Assembly: GCA_964572155.1 (NCBI GenBank)
Contig: CAZNDZ010000003.1
Coordinates: 266,224 to 330,223, forward strand
Reading direction: 5' to 3'
Source of the DNA: an uncultured Planctomycetales bacterium
GTDB taxonomy: Bacteria; Omnitrophota; Gorgyraeia; Zapsychrales; Fredricksoniimonadaceae
DNA: 64,000 nucleotides
In this document: positions 3,142 through 17,576 of the stretch, piece after piece
How positions within the stretch are numbered: the first letter of the stretch is position 1
Layout: the number at the start of each line of letters is the position of its first letter
Program-made: the position numbers and the translations under genes
The notes under the pieces: model-generated
What the model was told of the DNA's origin: nothing
What the model saw: the letters and a program-made list of their open reading frames with translations, nothing else
Database searches by the model: none

Positions 3142-3798
3142 TCATAAGGCATACCCTTTTTGATTCAAATGGATTTGATCGTCGGCATACACATCCGTTA
3201 AATCCGCACGCTTATTGTTGGTGATGATATCAATATAAGCCACGCGATCATCCTGTGCCTTCATATAAATATCACGCAATGTTAACGTGCGCTGTGTGAA
3301 TATAAATGACAAAGGCCACAAGAACATTTTAGAATCGCCAATGTCTCCGCTATGCAAGATCACAATATGTGTGGCGATGTTTTTAGCCAAAGCTAAAACA
3401 CGCTGATGTTCAAGGCGAACCCTAGACCATGGTGTGAAATACAAAATATCGTTGCCGCCAATGTGAAAAACTGCCAGATTAAATTTCTGACCTTGCAAGG
3501 ATTGTAAAACCTCAATCAAATCTTTGAGCGGCATGCCATTAACGCTATGATTCTCGACGTGAACATCTGGGTAATCTTGGCTAAACAATCCAGACGTACT
3601 AAACCGATTATCTGTTAATCCTGTACCAACCGCGGTACTGTCTCCTGCAAATAAAACTCTAAACGACGCATCAGGTTTTAGATTCTGCCAAGGCTTTAAT
3701 TGGAGGTTTACGCGTTGTTTGTAGGAATGAATGATGGCCATCTGCAGGGCAACAAAAACCGCCATCACCGCTAAGAAGATCACTACTTGCTCATGCAT
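3142..3798 (-). CDS. SGNH/GDSL-family hydrolase, membrane anchored
   Basis: 218 aa. N-terminal TM helix. FAGDS block I and GGNDIL block III of the SGNH hydrolase family. Confidence 0.6.
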   Translation of the reverse strand: MHEQVVIFLAVMAVFVALQMAIIHSYKQRVNLQLKPWQNLKPDASFRVLFAGDSTAVGTGLTDNRFSTSGLFSQDYPDVHVENHSVNGMPLKDLIEVLQSLQGQKFNLAVFHIGGNDILYFTPWSRVRLEHQRVLALAKNIATHIVILHSGDIGDSKMFLWPLSFIFTQRTLTLRDIYMKAQDDRVAYIDIITNNKRADLTDVYADDQIHLNQKGYAL

Positions 3799-4178
3799 TC
3801 TTTTAGATGGGTATCAATGCCAATGATGTGATTTGTAATCCATTGCTCGATAAAGTGATGCATGTCCATAAAGAAATCTTTTTCAAACTTCCCTGATTCA
3901 AAGACCTTCTTATACTCTTCGACTTTAACCAAGAACATTTGATGGGACATTTTATTTTTCTGTTCAACAGGGCATTTACTAGCGTGCATACAGCCTTCTT
4001 CAAAACGAAAATGGGCTTTGGCGTATGACTCCAACATGCCAAAACTCTTTTCTAAATAATGCGCACCTTTGCCTTCTTGAATAATGATCTCAAAATCGTT
4101 AAAGAAGTCAAAAAGCAATTTATGTTGCCGATCAATGGCTTCATTTCCAGTTGAGTAAGCTTCATTCCATTCAATCAT
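3783..4178 (-). CDS. hemerythrin-like metal-binding protein (bacteriohemerythrin)
   Basis: 131 aa. W-x-STG-x-IDxQH N-terminal signature, HFxxEE and HxxxH/WxxxHI iron-ligand motifs of the hemerythrin domain. Confidence 0.75.
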   Translation of the reverse strand: MIEWNEAYSTGNEAIDRQHKLLFDFFNDFEIIIQEGKGAHYLEKSFGMLESYAKAHFRFEEGCMHASKCPVEQKNKMSHQMFLVKVEEYKKVFESGKFEKDFFMDMHHFIEQWITNHIIGIDTHLKECMSK

Positions 4179-4196
4179 TGCTTTGACCTTTCTAGA

Positions 4197-5711
4197 TTAG
4201 CCGCCACCTGTGTGACAATCGATGCAATTCATCGTCTTCCAAGAATCATCATCTTCGAATGGATGCAAAAAGTCAAGGCCATCAGCATTTTTCTGAATGT
4301 TTTCATCCGAACCTTGTTGTGTTATGGTGTGGCAAATCTTACAATCACGCGAAATAACACCACCACTTTTACTCTTATGTTCTTCATCATGACAACGGAA
4401 ACATCCATTTGATATCATATGACCTGTATTGTCAGGATACACATCCCAACGCGCCTTCATTGCTGGGAAAAAATTTTGTTTGTAAATGGACTTAACCACA
4501 TCAACGGCTTCTTGAATTGTCTTTTGATTTGAATTATAAAACTCTGTTTGGCTTTTGGCATAATACTTAACCAAACTTGAATCTATTTTATCCATTGCTT
4601 CTTTCTCGTCTAGATATTCCTTAGATAGCACTTCAACTGCTTTACCCTTAATCATGGGAATCGATGATTTAAGTTTACCTTCTTCTAAAGCTTGATTGAT
4701 TAACACAACTGGCGCTTGATAATGATGGGCTGGACGATTATGACAATCCATACAATCCATCTTTCTTATCTTAGAAGAATCTGGTTCTTTGTCTTTATAT
4801 GGAGAATCTGGTGATGTGTAAATAGTTTCTTGTCCAACCTTACTAATGCTTTTAACCCAAGAAATTTTCTGACGTTTATCATCATCTGCCACATAATAAA
4901 TGTCGTTATTATTATACATGTGTGCATGTATTCCCGACTGTGTATCCCCTTTACCACTAACATGCATCAACATCTTAATAGACCACTTCGACGTCTTTGA
5001 TGGGTCATCAGCAAAATAGGTCTTTTTAACTTCAATGGCATTAAAAGATTTGCCTGGCCAATGACATTGTTCACAAATTTCCCTTGATGGACGCATGCTT
5101 GTCACGGGAGCAGGGATTGGTTTAGCATAATCGCCTTTTATGGTCTTTGCAAACATGCGCACACCCGCCATCTTATAATGCACATAAGAACCTGCCCCTG
5201 ATCCTATATGACACTGCACACAATTAACACGTGCGTGAGGTGATTGCCCATGCACAATAAATTCTGGCTCCATGATCTGATGACATGTAGCCCCACAAAA
5301 ATGATTTGATTCCGTATAATGATACGCCTTATAGGAGCCAATAGCCGTCATCAACATCACAACGACCGTCACAATCACAAATATGATAAATGCGTTTTGA
5401 TGTTCAGGGATTGAAAGATCAATATGAATCGCCCGTGGCTTACTATCAGCAAGCCCCTTGAGGACCCGTCGATGTTTCCAACGCGCGCCTACTGGAATCA
5501 AAATTAAACCAAGGATTAAAAACGGGGGCAAAATAAGGTAGGTTATGATGCCTAAATAATCATTATGTGTAGGTGCTAAGAAATCCACCCAAAACAAAAT
5601 TGTTTCACAAACGAGAACTACAATGGATAACGCTACACCTGCGTAGGTTATCACATTGTAGAAATCGTCGGAAAAACGTTGTTTCTTCGGTTTAGGATGA
5701 TGCTGCGTCAT
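4197..5711 (-). CDS. inner-membrane multiheme c-type cytochrome, ImcH-like (3 TM helices, NapC/NirT-like first heme after TM3, 7 heme motifs)
   Basis: 504 aa. Three N-terminal hydrophobic helices. Heme motifs are CGATCH (CX3CH), CVQCH, CEQCH, CMDCH, CFRCH, CKICH and CIDCH. The size, TM count and heme count match Geobacter ImcH-type quinol-oxidising cytochromes. Confidence 0.7.
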   Translation of the reverse strand: MTQHHPKPKKQRFSDDFYNVITYAGVALSIVVLVCETILFWVDFLAPTHNDYLGIITYLILPPFLILGLILIPVGARWKHRRVLKGLADSKPRAIHIDLSIPEHQNAFIIFVIVTVVVMLMTAIGSYKAYHYTESNHFCGATCHQIMEPEFIVHGQSPHARVNCVQCHIGSGAGSYVHYKMAGVRMFAKTIKGDYAKPIPAPVTSMRPSREICEQCHWPGKSFNAIEVKKTYFADDPSKTSKWSIKMLMHVSGKGDTQSGIHAHMYNNNDIYYVADDDKRQKISWVKSISKVGQETIYTSPDSPYKDKEPDSSKIRKMDCMDCHNRPAHHYQAPVVLINQALEEGKLKSSIPMIKGKAVEVLSKEYLDEKEAMDKIDSSLVKYYAKSQTEFYNSNQKTIQEAVDVVKSIYKQNFFPAMKARWDVYPDNTGHMISNGCFRCHDEEHKSKSGGVISRDCKICHTITQQGSDENIQKNADGLDFLHPFEDDDSWKTMNCIDCHTGGG

Positions 5712-5722
5712 AAATAATTAAT

Positions 5723-7792
5723 TTACCATAATAATTTTGCATCCAGCCAAACCACATGCGCACTATAACTACCGTTATCTGCATCTTGATTTGTACGATA
5801 TGAATAATAACTATAGTGTGGTTCTAAAGAGAAACTCTTATTGACATTCCATGCTAAACCCATGGTCATATCATAACTTTTATTATCAGCCCCATAAGGT
5901 TGAAGTGATGAGGTTGTTACATCATTAAAGTTATCAATGATTGTATATTGATAAGAACTATTTAAACTCAATTTCTCATTAATCACATAACTGGCAGATG
6001 CAAGCCAGCTATTAGAATTAGATTCAAATGACGGGATCTGTGTTGAGCTTACGGAACCCGCACGTGTTTTAACATCTGAAAAATCCTGAGAAAACGATAA
6101 CGTCACAAACAATGGGTCAATGGGTTGAAGATTAAGATCATAGGTAAAGATATTACTTAATCCTCGAGACTTTGTTTCTGGTTCATTCTCAACCCGTGGC
6201 ATGTAGCGATTGCTGATTAATTTATAACGAACCACACCTTCCACTCTGGAAATAGGCTTCCATGCAATCTTGGCCGAAGCTTCATCACCCTTGGTCTTCA
6301 AAGCATCCATGAATGCTGATTTCGAACCAGAACTATACGTGGTTTCCATGATATCGTCATAATCATTAACACTTAATTTATGACGCACTTGGGTTGTAAT
6401 ATTGACCGACTTTGTTGGAACAATACGAGCCCCAGCTGTAAAGACAGTGTTTTGAATATTTGTCCGTGTCTCCCGGCCTAATTGTTCTCCAGCCTCTGCA
6501 GATGATTGACCTGCAATGCTGTTGCGTTCTTCTGCCAACCAATTCCTTGTTTGTTCTAATTCAACTTCACTATACAAACTAGTTTTAGGAAGTCCGTTGT
6601 AACGCAAGGAGAAGTTCTCGCCAAAACGGTAGATTTTATTTTCAGTATTGCTAACATCCGTTGTATTGATAATCCCATCTGGCGTATTGGCTGTTGTGTC
6701 ATGTGGATACGTTGAAACGCCACGTCGACCAATGACTTCAGATTTAAACTTAGAAATGAAACTTAAAGTACTGGTTAACGATGACATAAAACTTGCTACC
6801 GTTGTATGTGCCTTATATTTATTATTCGCAGATGCATTAACCGCACTCTTTGGGTTAGAGTAATTAAATGGCGTGCCGTCCGCTTTATATTCGGTAATAT
6901 TCTCAAGCTCACTGGCATCCATATTGCTAAAGCGATACCCTAAAGATACATAATTCTTATCATCTAGAAACCAGCGATCCCCTTTAAATGTCGTTGTAAA
7001 TAAATCTGACTGAGGTTCTTGCCATTGTCGACGCATTTTTGTGTCTGATGTTAAACCACCGGCAGAAGATATGCTCTTTTCTTCACGTAAACTTTGGGCA
7101 TGAAAAAATTCAAACTTTTGCTCACCAGATACATGAATGCCAGCCACTTCTCCATTGGACTTTAGTGCAACAGAATCAGTCACTTCTTGCACATCTTGCC
7201 ATGATGGTCCTATATCACGCGTTGTTGCCCCTGCTTTAACAGCAGTCCACGCGAGACGGGATTTGCGCCCATCTTTGGTATGGCGTTCAAAAGCTAAGCC
7301 AACACCTGGTTCATCTGGCGTCTTTGTCCCGACCTCAACTAAAAAATGCTGCATATCCATTTTTAAATCATCGCCTAAAGTCGTAACACGCATGTTGGTA
7401 AATGGATAATATACACCGCCTGTTCCGTCGTAATACTTACGAAATGAAGTGTAGTCTGTTTTTAAATACCCTAAACTGTCTTTGCTTAATTTCAACTCAA
7501 CAGCATTGTCATAATCATTAGGCAAAGAATGTCCTTCTAAGGACACATGTGTATCTTTATTCACCGTCTTATCAACAATTAATTCTTTTAAACCATACGA
7601 TGTGCCATCATTCATCCATTGCATGGCTCTAAACTTCTGCGCATCTCCTTTTACCGTTGCAAATTGAAACGGCATGATGTTGACAATCACAGGATTTGGT
7701 ACTTCCTGCGCATGCACATTAAAAGCGCTTAAACTCGCTATCATGACACTTGATACAACACTCTTTGTAATTTTATTTTTAGCGATTTTCAT
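5723..7792 (-). CDS. outer-membrane beta-barrel protein, porin-cytochrome-complex type (MtrB/PioB/MtoB-like candidate)
   Basis: 689 aa. Cleavable signal peptide (ends AQ), alternating amphipathic beta-strand pattern throughout, C-terminal aromatic residue (LLW). Sits directly downstream of a periplasmic multiheme cytochrome, as in mtrAB/pioAB. Confidence 0.6.
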   Translation of the reverse strand: MKIAKNKITKSVVSSVMIASLSAFNVHAQEVPNPVIVNIMPFQFATVKGDAQKFRAMQWMNDGTSYGLKELIVDKTVNKDTHVSLEGHSLPNDYDNAVELKLSKDSLGYLKTDYTSFRKYYDGTGGVYYPFTNMRVTTLGDDLKMDMQHFLVEVGTKTPDEPGVGLAFERHTKDGRKSRLAWTAVKAGATTRDIGPSWQDVQEVTDSVALKSNGEVAGIHVSGEQKFEFFHAQSLREEKSISSAGGLTSDTKMRRQWQEPQSDLFTTTFKGDRWFLDDKNYVSLGYRFSNMDASELENITEYKADGTPFNYSNPKSAVNASANNKYKAHTTVASFMSSLTSTLSFISKFKSEVIGRRGVSTYPHDTTANTPDGIINTTDVSNTENKIYRFGENFSLRYNGLPKTSLYSEVELEQTRNWLAEERNSIAGQSSAEAGEQLGRETRTNIQNTVFTAGARIVPTKSVNITTQVRHKLSVNDYDDIMETTYSSGSKSAFMDALKTKGDEASAKIAWKPISRVEGVVRYKLISNRYMPRVENEPETKSRGLSNIFTYDLNLQPIDPLFVTLSFSQDFSDVKTRAGSVSSTQIPSFESNSNSWLASASYVINEKLSLNSSYQYTIIDNFNDVTTSSLQPYGADNKSYDMTMGLAWNVNKSFSLEPHYSYYSYRTNQDADNGSYSAHVVWLDAKLLW

Positions 7793-7809
7793 ACCGCTCT
7801 CCTTTAGCC

Positions 7810-8553
7810 TTAATACCGTAAATGGTCATCAAAATTCGATCCATGAACTGCCGTGTGACATCCGCCACTAAAACAACTCCCTTGAGCCAAACGACTTGCA
7901 TGATTTGACTTACCAATCGTTGGATATAGAATTTGTGTATGGCACCTTAAACACAAGTTTGAATCCTTTGCGATGAGCATCTTATCGTTAACGGAACCAT
8001 GCACCTTGTGGCATGTTGTACAACCATCACGCGCAGCTTCATGCTCCCAGACAAAAGGACCTTCTTGCTCTTTATGGCATTTAAAACACGCTTGATTGAC
8101 ATCATTAAATGACGTTGCACTCCAAGGCTTGGCTTCTTCACCATGAGCACTATGACAATCAGTACATGTCATTTTTCCTTCTAATACAGGATGGCGATAT
8201 GGTAATTTGAATTCGGCTTTCTTCTCGGTATGGCATGTGAAACAAACATCCGGATTCTTTTTGGGATTGATGATGTTATCCTTACCACCAGACGCATCGG
8301 CATGTATGCTACCTGGCCCATGGCACATTTCACAACCCTGTGCGGTTCCTTCATTCTTATCATTTGAAATACGTGAGTGCGTCGACAAAGTAAATTGTTT
8401 GAATTCTTTATCGTGACACGTTGCACATGTTTCTGTGCCAACATATGTCGCCGTCTTATACAACTCTCGTGCTTTATCATCTAACGCATAGGCTGGTTTA
8501 CAAAAAACCAGAAATAAACTTAAAACAATAAATAATAAATGTTTTATCTTCAT
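7810..8553 (-). CDS. periplasmic octaheme c-type cytochrome (MtrA/MtoA/OmaB-like partner of the beta-barrel)
   Basis: 247 aa. Signal peptide. Seven CXXCH motifs (CATCH, CEMCH, CFTCH, CTDCH, CFKCH, CTTCH, CLRCH) plus a C-terminal CFSGGCH (CX4CH). About 30 aa per heme. Confidence 0.8.
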   Translation of the reverse strand: MKIKHLLFIVLSLFLVFCKPAYALDDKARELYKTATYVGTETCATCHDKEFKQFTLSTHSRISNDKNEGTAQGCEMCHGPGSIHADASGGKDNIINPKKNPDVCFTCHTEKKAEFKLPYRHPVLEGKMTCTDCHSAHGEEAKPWSATSFNDVNQACFKCHKEQEGPFVWEHEAARDGCTTCHKVHGSVNDKMLIAKDSNLCLRCHTQILYPTIGKSNHASRLAQGSCFSGGCHTAVHGSNFDDHLRY

Positions 8554-8571
8554 ACTCCCCCCAATCCCTGT

Positions 8572-8871
8572 TTACTTCGCCTCGGGTTTAAAATCTTCAA
8601 TCTTGCCAACTGCTTTATACGTCTCTGCAGTTATTTCTTCTGCTTTTGCTTTAACGGCATTACCGTATTCATTTAATTCATGCTGGCCATCGTCCTTCTT
8701 TGGCTTTTCTTGAACATGGCATTCGATGCATTTTGGTTTTGCTTCTGGAAATGCTTCCTTATATTTCTTGATTTCTTTAAGATCAGCATGCGCTGGAATA
8801 ATACCATTTAAGATAAATAAAACTGCACCAACGATAACTAAACCATTAAACTTTACTTGTTGTTCTTTCAT
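8572..8871 (-). CDS. membrane-anchored monoheme cytochrome c (MtoD-like periplasmic shuttle candidate)
   Basis: 99 aa. N-terminal signal anchor and a single CIECH heme motif. Confidence 0.7.
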   Translation of the reverse strand: MKEQQVKFNGLVIVGAVLFILNGIIPAHADLKEIKKYKEAFPEAKPKCIECHVQEKPKKDDGQHELNEYGNAVKAKAEEITAETYKAVGKIEDFKPEAK

Positions 8872-9892
8872 AACTTCCCCCTTTTAAGATGGCTTTATAA
8901 AATTCTTCTCGCTTGCGTATTACTAAAGCTTCAACATCAGCAACCGCGTCTTGACGTTTTTGGATAGTTTTCTCTATCATTTTGTCCAAATCATCTAAAC
9001 TGATCAGCGTAACACCATCAACATCAGCAACGGTTGGCTCTATATTGCGTGGCATGGAAATATCAATTAACATGAGAGGATTCTTACGTTCTGAAACGAC
9101 ATTTGCAACGAGATCTTTGGTGATCACATAATGCGGCGCACCCGAAGAACAGATGCACACGTCCACTTGTGTGAGCACTTCCTTCATATTCCAGAAAGGC
9201 ACAAACTCTGCTTTAACTTCTGCAGCCACAGCTGCGGCTTTTTCGGGCGTGCGATTCATCAGATAAATGTGTTTGGCTTTGCGTTGATGTAAATAATTGA
9301 GCGCCATGCAACCCATTTTTCCAGAACCAACCACCAAAATGCTTTTGTCTTCCAATGAACCTAATAGTTTCTGAGCGGTGCTGACAGCAGCCGCACTGAC
9401 TGAAACGCCACCAAAATCAATCTGCGTATCTTGGCGCGCTTTCTTGCCAGTCTCTAATACAAAGTTCGTTAAAATATTTAACACACGATCCATCATGCCT
9501 TTTTCACGGGAAAGATTCACAGCATCCTTGATTTGTCCTAAGATTTGCTTCTCACCTAAGATCAGAGAATCAAGGCCACACGCGACTTGTAAGAAATGAT
9601 CGACGGCATCTGTTCCTTCTTTACAATAAAACATGTTTAGCAAATTAGCATCTTGTGAGAGATGCTTGATATTAAATAAATGATTCAATACGACCGATTC
9701 GTGACAATCATCAACCACATTGACATAAATTTCACAACGATTACAGGTAGATAAAATGATGGCAGATATAACGGAAGGTTCATTCTTTAATTGAGCAATC
9801 AAAAGCTCTTTTTCTACGGTGGTTAAACAAAACTTCTCACGCATGGCGATGGGGGATGTTTTATGATTGATCCCTAAAGCTAATATCTTCAT
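8846..9892 (-). CDS. hemA: glutamyl-tRNA reductase
   Basis: 348 aa. Conserved STCNR(C/T)E active-site region and NAD(P)-binding GxGxxG. Overlaps the monoheme cytochrome gene start. Confidence 0.9.
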   Translation of the reverse strand: MKILALGINHKTSPIAMREKFCLTTVEKELLIAQLKNEPSVISAIILSTCNRCEIYVNVVDDCHESVVLNHLFNIKHLSQDANLLNMFYCKEGTDAVDHFLQVACGLDSLILGEKQILGQIKDAVNLSREKGMMDRVLNILTNFVLETGKKARQDTQIDFGGVSVSAAAVSTAQKLLGSLEDKSILVVGSGKMGCMALNYLHQRKAKHIYLMNRTPEKAAAVAAEVKAEFVPFWNMKEVLTQVDVCICSSGAPHYVITKDLVANVVSERKNPLMLIDISMPRNIEPTVADVDGVTLISLDDLDKMIEKTIQKRQDAVADVEALVIRKREEFYKAILKGGSYERTTSKV

Positions 9893-9912: not shown

Positions 9913-10284
9913 TTAATGAAGTGTGTTTAAAATCTTGTTTACATTTGGCACCAATTGTTCAACCAAATGACTTTTACTAATAAAAGTCTTAATCAGATGC
10001 TTACTATTGAGTCGTTCGATGGTTTTAATATCAAACATGGTTAACATGATGATCGAACAACTTGGGAGTATGGCTTTGATCTGCGTTGCGGCATCAATCC
10101 CGTTGATACCACCTAACCAGAAATCCATTAAAATAATTTCCGGTCTTACTGCTTTTGCTTTAACAATGCCTTCCTCACCAGATGCTGCTTCAACCATTGC
10201 TGCTTTAATGTGGCTAATTTCTAAGAAACGTTTAACTTCTTGGCGAAATTCTTTATGATCTTCCACGATCAAGATGGTTGACAT
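9913..10284 (-). CDS. stand-alone response-regulator receiver (CheY-like) protein
   Basis: 123 aa. REC-domain acidic pocket and conserved Lys. No output domain. Confidence 0.8.
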   Translation of the reverse strand: MSTILIVEDHKEFRQEVKRFLEISHIKAAMVEAASGEEGIVKAKAVRPEIILMDFWLGGINGIDAATQIKAILPSCSIIMLTMFDIKTIERLNSKHLIKTFISKSHLVEQLVPNVNKILNTLH

Positions 10285-10393: not shown

Positions 10394-11038
10394 CTAGATA
10401 ATCCCCTTGGCAATGGCATATTTGACCAAAGCTGCGGTAGTTTTAAGGCCAAGCTTATGGATAAGATGACTACGATGCGTCTCGACGGTGCGGATGCTAA
10501 TTTTGAGTTTTGTAGCAATGTTTTTATTGGCATGACCTTGAGCAATCAATTTTAGAATCTCTTTTTCACGCGAGGTTAATATTTCTAATGATGGGCTGTC
10601 GCCTTCTCTCACAGAACTTAAATATTGATTGGTAATGATCTCTGAAATGGCTGATGAAACATAGGACTTACCTTTCATGACCATCTTTATCGCAATGACC
10701 AAGGAATCAAACGCTCTATCCTTAAGGATGTAGCCTTTCGCCCCATTGGCCATGGCGCGTTTAAAATGTTCTTCATCTTTTTGCATGGTTAAAACAAGGC
10801 ACTTTGTTTTAGGAAATTCCTTTTGTATCTCTTTTAAGGTGGCCAAGCCGTCTAAGTTTGGCATGGAAAGATCCATGACCACACAATCAACCGTAACTTT
10901 TCTTAACTTCTCCAATAACTTCTCTCCATCTTCAGCTTGGGCCACAACTTTAAAGTCAGGCTCTTTCTCTAATAAACCCTTTAAACCTGAACGAAACATT
11001 TCATGATCATCAGCTAAAATAACGCGGATTGTTTTCAT
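10394..11038 (-). CDS. NarL/FixJ-family response regulator (REC + LuxR-type HTH)
   Basis: 214 aa. N-terminal receiver with DDH..D..MP motifs. C-terminal LuxR HTH (LTSREKEIL...IA..L.IS..TV..H). Confidence 0.9.
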   Translation of the reverse strand: MKTIRVILADDHEMFRSGLKGLLEKEPDFKVVAQAEDGEKLLEKLRKVTVDCVVMDLSMPNLDGLATLKEIQKEFPKTKCLVLTMQKDEEHFKRAMANGAKGYILKDRAFDSLVIAIKMVMKGKSYVSSAISEIITNQYLSSVREGDSPSLEILTSREKEILKLIAQGHANKNIATKLKISIRTVETHRSHLIHKLGLKTTAALVKYAIAKGII

Positions 11039-12090
11039 ATTTTCTTTAACGATACAGGAACTTCCAATGTGATCGTTGCCCCTTGGTTAACGTGAGATTT
11101 AATGATAACCCGACCACCTAACAAATGCGCGCGTTCTTGCATGGTGGCAAGACCCAGCCCAAAAGTCTTACCATTGGTTTGAAAGCCACGGCCATTATCA
11201 ATGATGGTTATCTTCAAATTATCCTTCAATCGTGTCATGCGGACTTTGACGACGGTTGCCTTGGCATGTTTAATGCTGTTAGTCAATGCTTCTTGTACAA
11301 TCCGAAATACGTTGATAGCATCCCCCTGAAAAATCAGATTTTCAGTCTTAACAGGATAAAAATGCACTTTAAAATTCTTTTGATGATTAATGTCGTTGAT
11401 CAACAACTTTAATGCCGCGCCCAAACCAAGAACTTCCAGCGACGACGGACGCAAGCGTGTTGCTAAATTGCGTGACCGTTCAATGATACCGCTCAAATAA
11501 TTTACAATCCGCTTGTCATCAACCTTACATTGTTGACGGTCCCCCTGATCTAACAATGACGACTGAATCATCATCTTTAACGTTGCCAATGATTGCCCTA
11601 AATCATCATGAATATCGCGCGCAATGCGATTGCATTCACCTTCTTGAGCTTGAATGATACGCTTAGGTAAAGCCTTGATCTGTTCTTCCATTAATTTACG
11701 CTGTGTGATCTCAGTACGAATGGCAACATATTGATATGGCTTATTTTTTTCATTTAAAAACGGGACGATGGTTGTATCAACCCAATACAAACTCCCATCT
11801 TTTGCACGATTACACAACTCACCCTTCCACACCTTGCCGTTGGCAATGGTGCGCCATAGATCTTTGAAAAACTCTTTAGAATGATGCCCCGAGTTAATGA
11901 TCCGATGATCCTGCCCCAATAAATCTTTTTGAGAATACTTGGATATCTGACAAAATTTATCGTTTACATAGATGATCTTGCCTTTTTGATCAGTAATGGC
12001 CACGATCGATGAGGCATCTAGCGCAAACTTAATGTCGGCAAGTTCTTTGAGGGATTTTTCTAAGGTGTTATTTTTAATTGCTTGATTCAT
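11035..12090 (-). CDS. PAS-domain sensor histidine kinase (HisKA_3/NarX-type dimerisation domain + HATPase_c)
   Basis: 351 aa. N-terminal PAS. H-box RIARDIHDDLGQ of HisKA_3 type. N/G1/G2 boxes (DNGRGF, GLGL). Overlaps the response-regulator gene by 4 nt. Confidence 0.85.
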   Translation of the reverse strand: MNQAIKNNTLEKSLKELADIKFALDASSIVAITDQKGKIIYVNDKFCQISKYSQKDLLGQDHRIINSGHHSKEFFKDLWRTIANGKVWKGELCNRAKDGSLYWVDTTIVPFLNEKNKPYQYVAIRTEITQRKLMEEQIKALPKRIIQAQEGECNRIARDIHDDLGQSLATLKMMIQSSLLDQGDRQQCKVDDKRIVNYLSGIIERSRNLATRLRPSSLEVLGLGAALKLLINDINHQKNFKVHFYPVKTENLIFQGDAINVFRIVQEALTNSIKHAKATVVKVRMTRLKDNLKITIIDNGRGFQTNGKTFGLGLATMQERAHLLGGRVIIKSHVNQGATITLEVPVSLKKI

Positions 12091-15006: not shown

Positions 15007-16575
15007 TTATACTGATCTGGTTTTTTGATTAATCATCCCAACGGTAAAGACAAGGAAAAGCAGCTCAACAATGGCATAAATAATGAGTGTTGTGGCAACA
15101 CCCGAGGTAAATCCGTATGAATGCAGACCAACGCTTAAAAGATTAACTCCAAACCATGCCCACATGACAATGAGTAAGCCAATCACACAACCAACAGCAA
15201 CGCCTAGCGCATCAATCATTTTTGCCACACGCGCATGCAAAATGATGGCAATCCACAGCACAATCATTAAGGCCCCATTTTCTTTAGGATCCCATCCCCA
15301 AAAACGACCCCAGCTTTGATCCGCCCAAACACCGCCGAGATTTGTTCCTAAGAATGTTAACGTCAATGAGAATCCCAAGATGCCCATGGTTGTCTTATAG
15401 GTTTTATCCAACATGGCTTGAGGTTTCCCAAGTGCCGCTTGAATTAACCACACATGCCCCAACACACCGGCGACACATGTTGCGCCATAGCCCATGGTGA
15501 TGGTGGTCACATGCGTTGCCAGCCAAAAATTAGAATCCAAGACAGCAACCATCATGGTTAAGGTGTCCCCGTCAGCACTATAGCGATTGGCAATAAACAA
15601 CATGACGGCACCACAAATCGCCGCTGTAATAACCCCAAGCCATTGGCGATTATTACGCTCGATAAATAATCCTAAGATCACCCCCATTAACCCTACAAAA
15701 ACAAATGTTTCATATAAATTTGTTACAGGTGGACGATCCATAATAATCGTGCGTGCAATCAAACCTAACGCATGAGGGATAAATCCACAGATGACAGCCC
15801 CTAGCCCTAAAACATACCCCAGCTTCTTTGAAGAAGCCAACGAGGCAACAAATAATAGAAACGCCAAAATATAAAAAACAATGGCCCACGTAAATGGGCT
15901 GCTTTTGTGATACAACAATTCTAATGGGAACTTACGGACATTGGCCTGCTCTGATTTTGAAAGCTTACCCCCCACGACGTTGATATACCCCACAACTGCC
16001 GCATCAAAATCTGCCTGATTTCCAAGACGGTAACTTGCTGACATTGCACGCCAATAAGCTGTCATTTCCTCGGTCTGGTCGACGACCAAATGCATATTCG
16101 CATAAGAACGCGACAGATCGGCATAGATATTGATGTTGTCAAAAATACGCAGGATTTCTCGCTCTACTAATGAACGTTCTTTCTCTGAGATATTTCTAGC
16201 TTGCGATTGAAGCTCAGCGAGTTTTCTATAAGAACCTTTTAACTGCGCAGGTGTATAACGCCGATGTGAATCTACGGGAATCTCTAACGCTGCTGCGATG
16301 TCAGGATTATTAATTAAGAACACACGATCACTCATGGTTTTCTCTTCGAGAAATAAAACATCCGCCAACCAGGCAATGCCTTCTTCTTTTTGATAATGAT
16401 CTTTTCCAGAGAACTGTGTTAATACACTGCGGGCAAATGTATCAAGCGGCTTAACGCGGCCATTTTCGATCACAGGGATGTGTTTAAACTGCGTCAAATC
16501 CTTAACCCCTGAGGCAAAAGCACTGTGCGCTCCACAAATAAACAATATGCTTAAGAAAAATATTTTAATTTGCAT
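15007..16575 (-). CDS. ccsA: cytochrome c biogenesis protein CcsA/ResC (system II heme lyase subunit)
   Basis: W-rich WGxxWGWDPKENG (WWD) heme-handling motif and multiple TM helices. The likely start is the ATG at 16573-16575 (MQIKIFF...), which overlaps the ccsB TGA by 1 nt and suggests translational coupling. The track ORF extends to 16644. Confidence 0.85.
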   Translation of the reverse strand: MQIKIFFLSILFICGAHSAFASGVKDLTQFKHIPVIENGRVKPLDTFARSVLTQFSGKDHYQKEEGIAWLADVLFLEEKTMSDRVFLINNPDIAAALEIPVDSHRRYTPAQLKGSYRKLAELQSQARNISEKERSLVEREILRIFDNINIYADLSRSYANMHLVVDQTEEMTAYWRAMSASYRLGNQADFDAAVVGYINVVGGKLSKSEQANVRKFPLELLYHKSSPFTWAIVFYILAFLLFVASLASSKKLGYVLGLGAVICGFIPHALGLIARTIIMDRPPVTNLYETFVFVGLMGVILGLFIERNNRQWLGVITAAICGAVMLFIANRYSADGDTLTMMVAVLDSNFWLATHVTTITMGYGATCVAGVLGHVWLIQAALGKPQAMLDKTYKTTMGILGFSLTLTFLGTNLGGVWADQSWGRFWGWDPKENGALMIVLWIAIILHARVAKMIDALGVAVGCVIGLLIVMWAWFGVNLLSVGLHSYGFTSGVATTLIIYAIVELLFLVFTVGMINQKTRSV

Positions 16576-17576
16576 CAATGTTCTTTCGTCCGAAATGCAT
16601 GTATTAAATAGTGCAAGGCCAATCCAAAAAAGACAACCAAACATGCCACATATGGCAAGACTCTGGCAAAATTCTTAACCACAGCCAGCGTCGAATATTG
16701 TCGACCAAACTGGTCTTTGTCATATGAAGCCTGATAAATTGTATAGTCCTTATACTTTAATGGATTATTCATAAAGATCTTTGCCTGCCTCTTTAAAGAA
16801 CCGGTATCAATCATCACATGGCTTTCATAATTCTTAGCCATGCTAGTCCCTGGGAGAAATTCGGCTTTAAAACTATCGAGCGTGATCTTAAATGGCAGAG
16901 GAAATACTTTATGACGCAAGATGAAATAATACCTTTGTCCGTCGATCAAAGCTGTTGCAGGCTGTTCAATTTGACCATCTAACATAAACTCGAGTGGCTT
17001 ATCATTGACCCAAAGCTCAAAAACACCGCTGGCATTATTCTCAACGTTGTTTAAATGAAACTCTTTCACCACAAGGCGGGCATTCTTATTTACGAATGGC
17101 AATGTTGTATTTGATTTGAAGTGTTCTACATCTAAGGCCGTGATGGCACGATCTTGTTGCTCTCCAGTCCAATACGCCAGTTCCCATGCTTGATATGAAA
17201 CCGATACATTGGTTGATTGCCCCTCGGCTAAATGTATGGCAGATTCTTCTGAGACATGAAAAACCATAAAAGCGGCCACAAAATAAAATAACAACCCGAC
17301 ATGGGTGATTAATAAACCCGCATTCACCCACTGACTATATCTCTTTAATGAAAGCAGCGTCATGGCAAGCAAGTTGACAAACAAAACCCATAACACTGAT
17401 TGAGCACCTGGGAATGGGAGAAATCCGCCGGCCAAAAAGAAGAAGGAATTAAAGAAACGTTCCTGTGACGCATACAAACCTTGTTGCACTTGAGCGATCG
17501 TGCCCCAAAATGTCAAGATCAGCAACAACGTCAAACATGTCACCGTGATCACAGAAGAACTTAAACGTTTTAACAT
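16575..17576 (-). CDS. ccsB: cytochrome c biogenesis protein CcsB/ResB (short form)
   Basis: 333 aa. N-terminal TM helices, periplasmic domain, and C-terminal ResB-family block NNPLKYKDYTIYQASYD. Confidence 0.8.
   Translation of the reverse strand: MLKRLSSSVITVTCLTLLLILTFWGTIAQVQQGLYASQERFFNSFFFLAGGFLPFPGAQSVLWVLFVNLLAMTLLSLKRYSQWVNAGLLITHVGLLFYFVAAFMVFHVSEESAIHLAEGQSTNVSVSYQAWELAYWTGEQQDRAITALDVEHFKSNTTLPFVNKNARLVVKEFHLNNVENNASGVFELWVNDKPLEFMLDGQIEQPATALIDGQRYYFILRHKVFPLPFKITLDSFKAEFLPGTSMAKNYESHVMIDTGSLKRQAKIFMNNPLKYKDYTIYQASYDKDQFGRQYSTLAVVKNFARVLPYVACLVVFFGLALHYLIHAFRTKEH

Follow-up and report, generated by a model that had tools for sequence, protein, structure and literature searches.

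The closest known counterparts of the locus described here are MtrCAB of Shewanella (PDB 6R2Q) and the paralogous DmsEF, the Fe(II)-oxidizing MtoA-MtoB-MtoD-CymA (Sideroxydans and Gallionella) and PioAB (Rhodopseudomonas) systems, the OmaB-OmbB-OmcB (Pcc) complex of Geobacter, the inner-membrane cytochromes ImcH and CbcL of Geobacter sulfurreducens, and Cyc2. In MtrCAB, hemes 6-10 of MtrA are those that run towards the outer face of the cell. For minerals, Shewanella MtrAB depends on MtrC, whereas the partner-less MtoAB and PioAB systems run inward. Cyc2 is a protein of about 440 aa with a 16-strand barrel. To our knowledge, the Geobacter outer-membrane Pcc and Ext complexes are unrelated to MtrAB. 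To date, Fe(III) reducers are the only reported source of ImcH homologues, inner-membrane cytochromes that are regarded as quinol oxidases (PMC6295460), and no mtrAB or mtoAB genes were found adjacent to any imcH (Zhong & Shi 2018).

We analysed a 64-kb stretch of DNA (the window) from an uncultured Omnitrophota bacterium. An array of six closely packed minus-strand genes had been predicted from the sequence, and all six were found between positions 3783 and 9892 (Table 1). The spacing from hemA through the monoheme cytochrome, octaheme cytochrome, barrel and membrane cytochrome genes to the hemerythrin gene is −26, 18, 17, 11 and 18 nt, which by itself suggests that the array is co-transcribed. 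Promoter and terminator scans of the locus gave results no better than those for shuffled sequence. Because the same locus was found again on independent assemblies (L001-L003 are assemblies of the same species) and its core is syntenic at 48 Omnitrophota genome loci, the arrangement is not due to chance.

Table 1. Genes of the cluster and its surroundings, in window coordinates
Feature	Position	Strand	Length	Characteristics
ccsA/resB, system II cytochrome c maturation	15007..17576	-		Pfam Cytochrom_C_asm and ResB on identical genes in L002
Histidine kinase	11035..12090	-		PAS, HisKA_3 and HATPase domains
NarL/LuxR-type response regulator	10394..11038	-		Response_reg and GerE
Stand-alone receiver-domain (REC) protein	9913..10284	-		Response_reg E 4.5e-17; 20 nt upstream of hemA
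hemA, glutamyl-tRNA reductase, short form	8846..9892	-	348 aa	First gene of the array
Small periplasmic monoheme cytochrome c	8572..8871	-	99 aa	Signal peptide ending AHA/D; CIECH
Octaheme MtrA/DmsE-type cytochrome	7810..8553	-	247 aa
26-strand outer-membrane beta-barrel	5723..7792	-	689 aa	Signal peptide VHA/QE; C-terminal Trp
ImcH-type inner-membrane heptaheme cytochrome	4197..5711	-	504 aa	NapC/NirT/NrfH-like quinol-dehydrogenase region
Single-domain bacteriohemerythrin	3783..4178	-	131 aa	NF033749 93 bits (cut-off 84); TIGR02481 E 6.7e-29
GDSL/SGNH hydrolase	3142..3798	-		Lipase_GDSL_2 E 1.2e-15; N-terminal hydrophobic segment

The heme counts of the original prediction stood, with their details corrected: the 247-aa cytochrome contains seven CX2CH motifs and a terminal CX4CH (C227FSGGCH), and the 504-aa cytochrome contains one CX3CH (C139GATCH) and six CX2CH motifs. 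In a phmmer comparison the octaheme protein matched MtrA (6r2q_A) with an E value of 8.9e-34, and over MtrA hemes 6-10 it shares 37% identity with the Photobacterium protein. Global alignment indicated that hemes 4-5 of MtrA are deleted internally while both termini are retained. Judged by its sequence, the octaheme protein is thus a clear MtrA homologue, although its score against the DmsE family model (TIGR03508, 173 bits) falls under the cut-off of 192. Among the 45 relatives that were read, 32 have seven CX2CH motifs plus CX4CH and a further 6 read 8+1.

The best structural match of the barrel is MtrB, and a profile-profile comparison with controls identified it as a full-length remote homologue of MtrB/PioB. 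We rejected a TonB receptor or an alginate porin as its identity on the strength of the MtrB match. The barrel is about 12% identical to MtrB, fails both PF11854 and TIGR03509, and is given no curated family by the databases. It contains no cysteine and therefore lacks the N-terminal CXXC found in 26 of 33 MtrB-family members, as had been predicted. In contrast, the earlier view that the barrel could not be placed in a named family did not hold, since the structural and profile matches place it in the MtrB/PioB superfamily, as a deep branch that has gone unannotated. We propose that the barrel forms the sheath and the octaheme protein the wire inside it.

Three transmembrane helices had been predicted in the 504-aa cytochrome, and we found them both by hydropathy (residues 16-48, 51-78 and 101-130) and in a structural model (20-45, 51-84 and 102-133), at positions that also agree with those of ImcH (GSU3259). 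The heme motifs lie at residues 139, 164, 213, 320, 437, 457 and 496; those of GSU3259, compared by position, are at 132, 156, 205, 311, 428, 448 and 486 (PMC6295460 Table S3). Thus, the ImcH-like architecture and motif spacing were reproduced. The protein also matched Pfam Cytochrom_NNT (E 1.8e-9) and, over the third transmembrane helix and first hemes, NrfH (2j7a_C, E 1e-3). The FCGxxCHxxM sequence and K180 are invariant in 34 homologues, and the architecture is retained in 20 of 24 relatives.

These NrfH similarities raise the alternative of a purely periplasmic chain, in which a NapC/NrfH-like quinol dehydrogenase and multiheme carriers feed a soluble reductase encoded elsewhere and the barrel is an ordinary porin or transporter. 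Such a chain would account for the matches of the membrane cytochrome to NrfH/NapC models and for the weak matches of the octaheme protein to NrfB-like models, but both scores are far below cut-off (47 versus 134 bits for NrfH, 48 versus 184 for NrfB), as against an E value of 9e-34 for MtrA. It would also suit a barrel without a curated family, yet the best structural and profile match is MtrB specifically, and the barrel shows neither a TonB-type plug nor a TonB box. Moreover, no NrfA-type catalytic subunit or other reductase was found in the cluster or in the window, of whose 57 ORFs about 45 were scanned with Pfam. Of the 37 Omnitrophota loci that could be evaluated, 36 have the octaheme gene directly upstream of the barrel gene, the hallmark of sheath-and-wire pairs. 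We consider this explanation very improbable.

The neighbourhood is conserved among relatives, with hemA and the ImcH-like gene as frequent neighbours of the octaheme-barrel pair. The ImcH-like gene adjoins the barrel gene in 8 of 34 loci and is present somewhere in 23 of 43. The cluster had been called a complete conduit, which is true only in a relative sense: in a close relative (L005) the same cluster includes a CbcL-type cytochrome with 11 hemes and a b-type membrane domain, and in others, such as L046, the pair is accompanied by a Rieske/cytochrome b module that includes multiheme cytochromes. The modules joined to the pair in relatives always connect to the quinone pool. The octaheme-barrel adjacency, as in mtrA-mtrB, argues for a conduit. 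Against it we count the presence of 8 rather than 10 hemes, the failure of the barrel with PF11854/TIGR03509 and its missing N-terminal CXXC, the octaheme score under the DmsE-family cut-off, and the limited number of loci at which the ImcH-like gene is next to the barrel. On balance, the predicted porin-cytochrome conduit with an inner-membrane cytochrome is supported, and the cluster likely encodes an MtrAB-type trans-outer-membrane conduit coupled to ImcH.

The monoheme protein has a single CXXCH and a hydrophobic N-terminal segment and gave no Pfam, NCBIfam or PDB match. The family motif is KPKCxxCH...PKK..G.H.xN.YG; conservation of the second His, with no conserved Met, suggests bis-His ligation. 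The proposed resemblance to the mtoD-containing systems held for the four-part gene set but not for the monoheme, which is not similar to any solved chain, including MtoD provided that the PDB copy searched contains a structure of it. In distant members of the barrel family (780-915 aa), a monoheme cytochrome domain is fused in front of the barrel, which supports a role of the monoheme at the barrel. The 99-aa monoheme is weakly similar to the PSCyt1 heme region in fused barrels (hhalign probability 77% over 22 columns). We propose that it works at the periplasmic mouth of the barrel, either as a shuttle or as an adaptor.

HemA, the enzyme for the committed step of heme synthesis, contains GlutR_N and Shikimate_DH domains. 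The match to TIGR01035 (338 bits, cut-off 210) is limited to model positions 1-332 of 416, indicating that the C-terminal domain is missing. Its relatives are 317-456 aa long, with 15 of 19 between 346 and 369 aa. The linkage of hemA and hemerythrin to the cluster had been considered unusual. This was not so for hemA, which precedes the octaheme-barrel pair in 14 of 30 evaluable loci, whereas hemerythrin follows the cluster in just 2 of 33, both closest relatives (L004 and L005). Hemerythrin is thus a lineage-specific addition, probably an accessory for O2 or redox sensing or buffering. The GDSL hydrolase gene shares 16 nt with the end of the hemerythrin gene and is probably the last gene of the transcript. 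It has no evident tie to electron transfer, and it follows hemerythrin solely in L001-L003; the CbcL-type gene occupies that place in L005.

The kinase, NarL-type regulator and REC genes noted beside the array are all present and are syntenic in L005 and the distant L024 (83% and 70% identity, respectively, for the NarL-type protein, the likely transcriptional regulator of the cluster). By eye, the kinase has neither a signal peptide nor a transmembrane segment. Its PAS domain matched NifL (TIGR02938, E 7e-24 over residues 27-140) and the YtvA family (4.9e-15), and resembles the NifL/LOV flavin type without the LOV cysteine (...GQDHRIINSG... at that site). The three genes likely constitute a redox-responsive switch. 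The nearby ccsA/resB genes, also close to the cluster in L005, L006, L008, L009 and L046, are needed to attach hemes to the three cytochromes, 16 in all, and together with hemA as first gene of the array they match the heme supply and attachment requirements of such a unit.

As predicted, no outer-surface cytochrome is encoded nearby; apart from the three cytochromes of the cluster, the 64-kb window encodes no c-type cytochrome, and it contains neither an MtrC-like surface cytochrome nor a terminal reductase. The original prediction was right that the sequence does not reveal which way the electrons flow, and we infer the direction from context. The window carries nrdDG (anaerobic RNR) and pta-ackA, with no terminal oxidase, nitrate reductase or carbon-fixation gene among about 45 of its 57 ORFs scanned with Pfam. 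This content suits an anaerobe in need of an electron sink, while the missing extracellular cytochrome and terminal reductase count against an outward conduit. We consider outward flow slightly favoured.

Run inward, the same conduit would be fed by extracellular Fe(II), reduced humics, minerals or a partner cell. Its electrons would pass via the monoheme to the ImcH-like cytochrome, which would then reduce quinone, or would travel on to a terminal oxidase or reductase encoded elsewhere in the genome. The gene set mirrors mtoA-mtoB-mtoD-cymA (monoheme, MtrA-like cytochrome, barrel and NapC/NirT-related membrane cytochrome), but the monoheme resembles no solved chain. The oxidizing MtoAB/PioAB systems typically have no surface cytochrome either, and the Rieske/cytochrome b complex linked to the pair in some relatives could run in reverse; against this stand the gene content of the window and the restriction of reported ImcH homologues to Fe(III) reducers. 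Similarly, the co-located O2-binding hemerythrin would fit inward flow but is not conserved with the cluster. Inward flow is rather unlikely.

For the outward conduit, the inner-membrane heptaheme, with its NrfH-like quinol site (FCGxxCHxxM), would oxidize menaquinol, and electrons would run along its seven hemes into the periplasm. The monoheme would carry them, or pass them on, to the octaheme protein at its periplasmic end; this protein is predicted to be threaded through the MtrB-like barrel and to end at the cell surface. There it would reduce soluble or colloidal oxidants such as chelated Fe(III), humic quinones or possibly a partner cell; direct reduction is suggested because no MtrC-like cytochrome is encoded nearby. 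This explanation as a whole, including the outward path, appears reasonably probable.

The cluster resembles MtrCAB and DmsEF in its MtrA-homologous cytochrome and a plug-less 26-strand barrel encoded immediately downstream, but it has 8 rather than 10 hemes, a terminal CX4CH rather than CX2CH, no MtrC/OmcA surface decaheme and an ImcH-type rather than a CymA partner, and its barrel escapes the MtrB family models and lacks the N-terminal CXXC. The four-part logic is common to MtoA-MtoB-MtoD-CymA and PioAB, and MtoAB and PioAB also lack a surface cytochrome. However, a three-helix heptaheme ImcH type takes the place of the one-helix tetraheme CymA and an octaheme that of the decaheme, and the genes belong to an Omnitrophota anaerobe that carries anaerobic RNR and pta-ackA rather than to a microaerophilic lithoautotroph. 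Cyc2 shares, by description, the fused cytochrome-porin design of the distant barrel-family members (780-915 aa), whereas the window barrel is a separate protein with a multiheme cytochrome as its partner. Likewise by description, the Geobacter Pcc complex OmaB-OmbB-OmcB combines an octaheme periplasmic cytochrome with a barrel and belongs to the same function class; here the octaheme is MtrA-homologous, the barrel is MtrB-like with 26 strands, and an OmcB-like lipoprotein cytochrome is absent. Geobacter sulfurreducens ImcH (GSU3259) has the same length, three N-terminal helices, a CX3CH by the third helix and six CX2CH motifs with nearly identical spacing, and CbcL of that organism has a counterpart in the L005 cluster. 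Geobacter imcH is not beside an outer-membrane conduit, whereas here the ImcH-like gene is 11 nt downstream of the barrel gene. The cluster is a divergent version of the known Shewanella and Geobacter systems.

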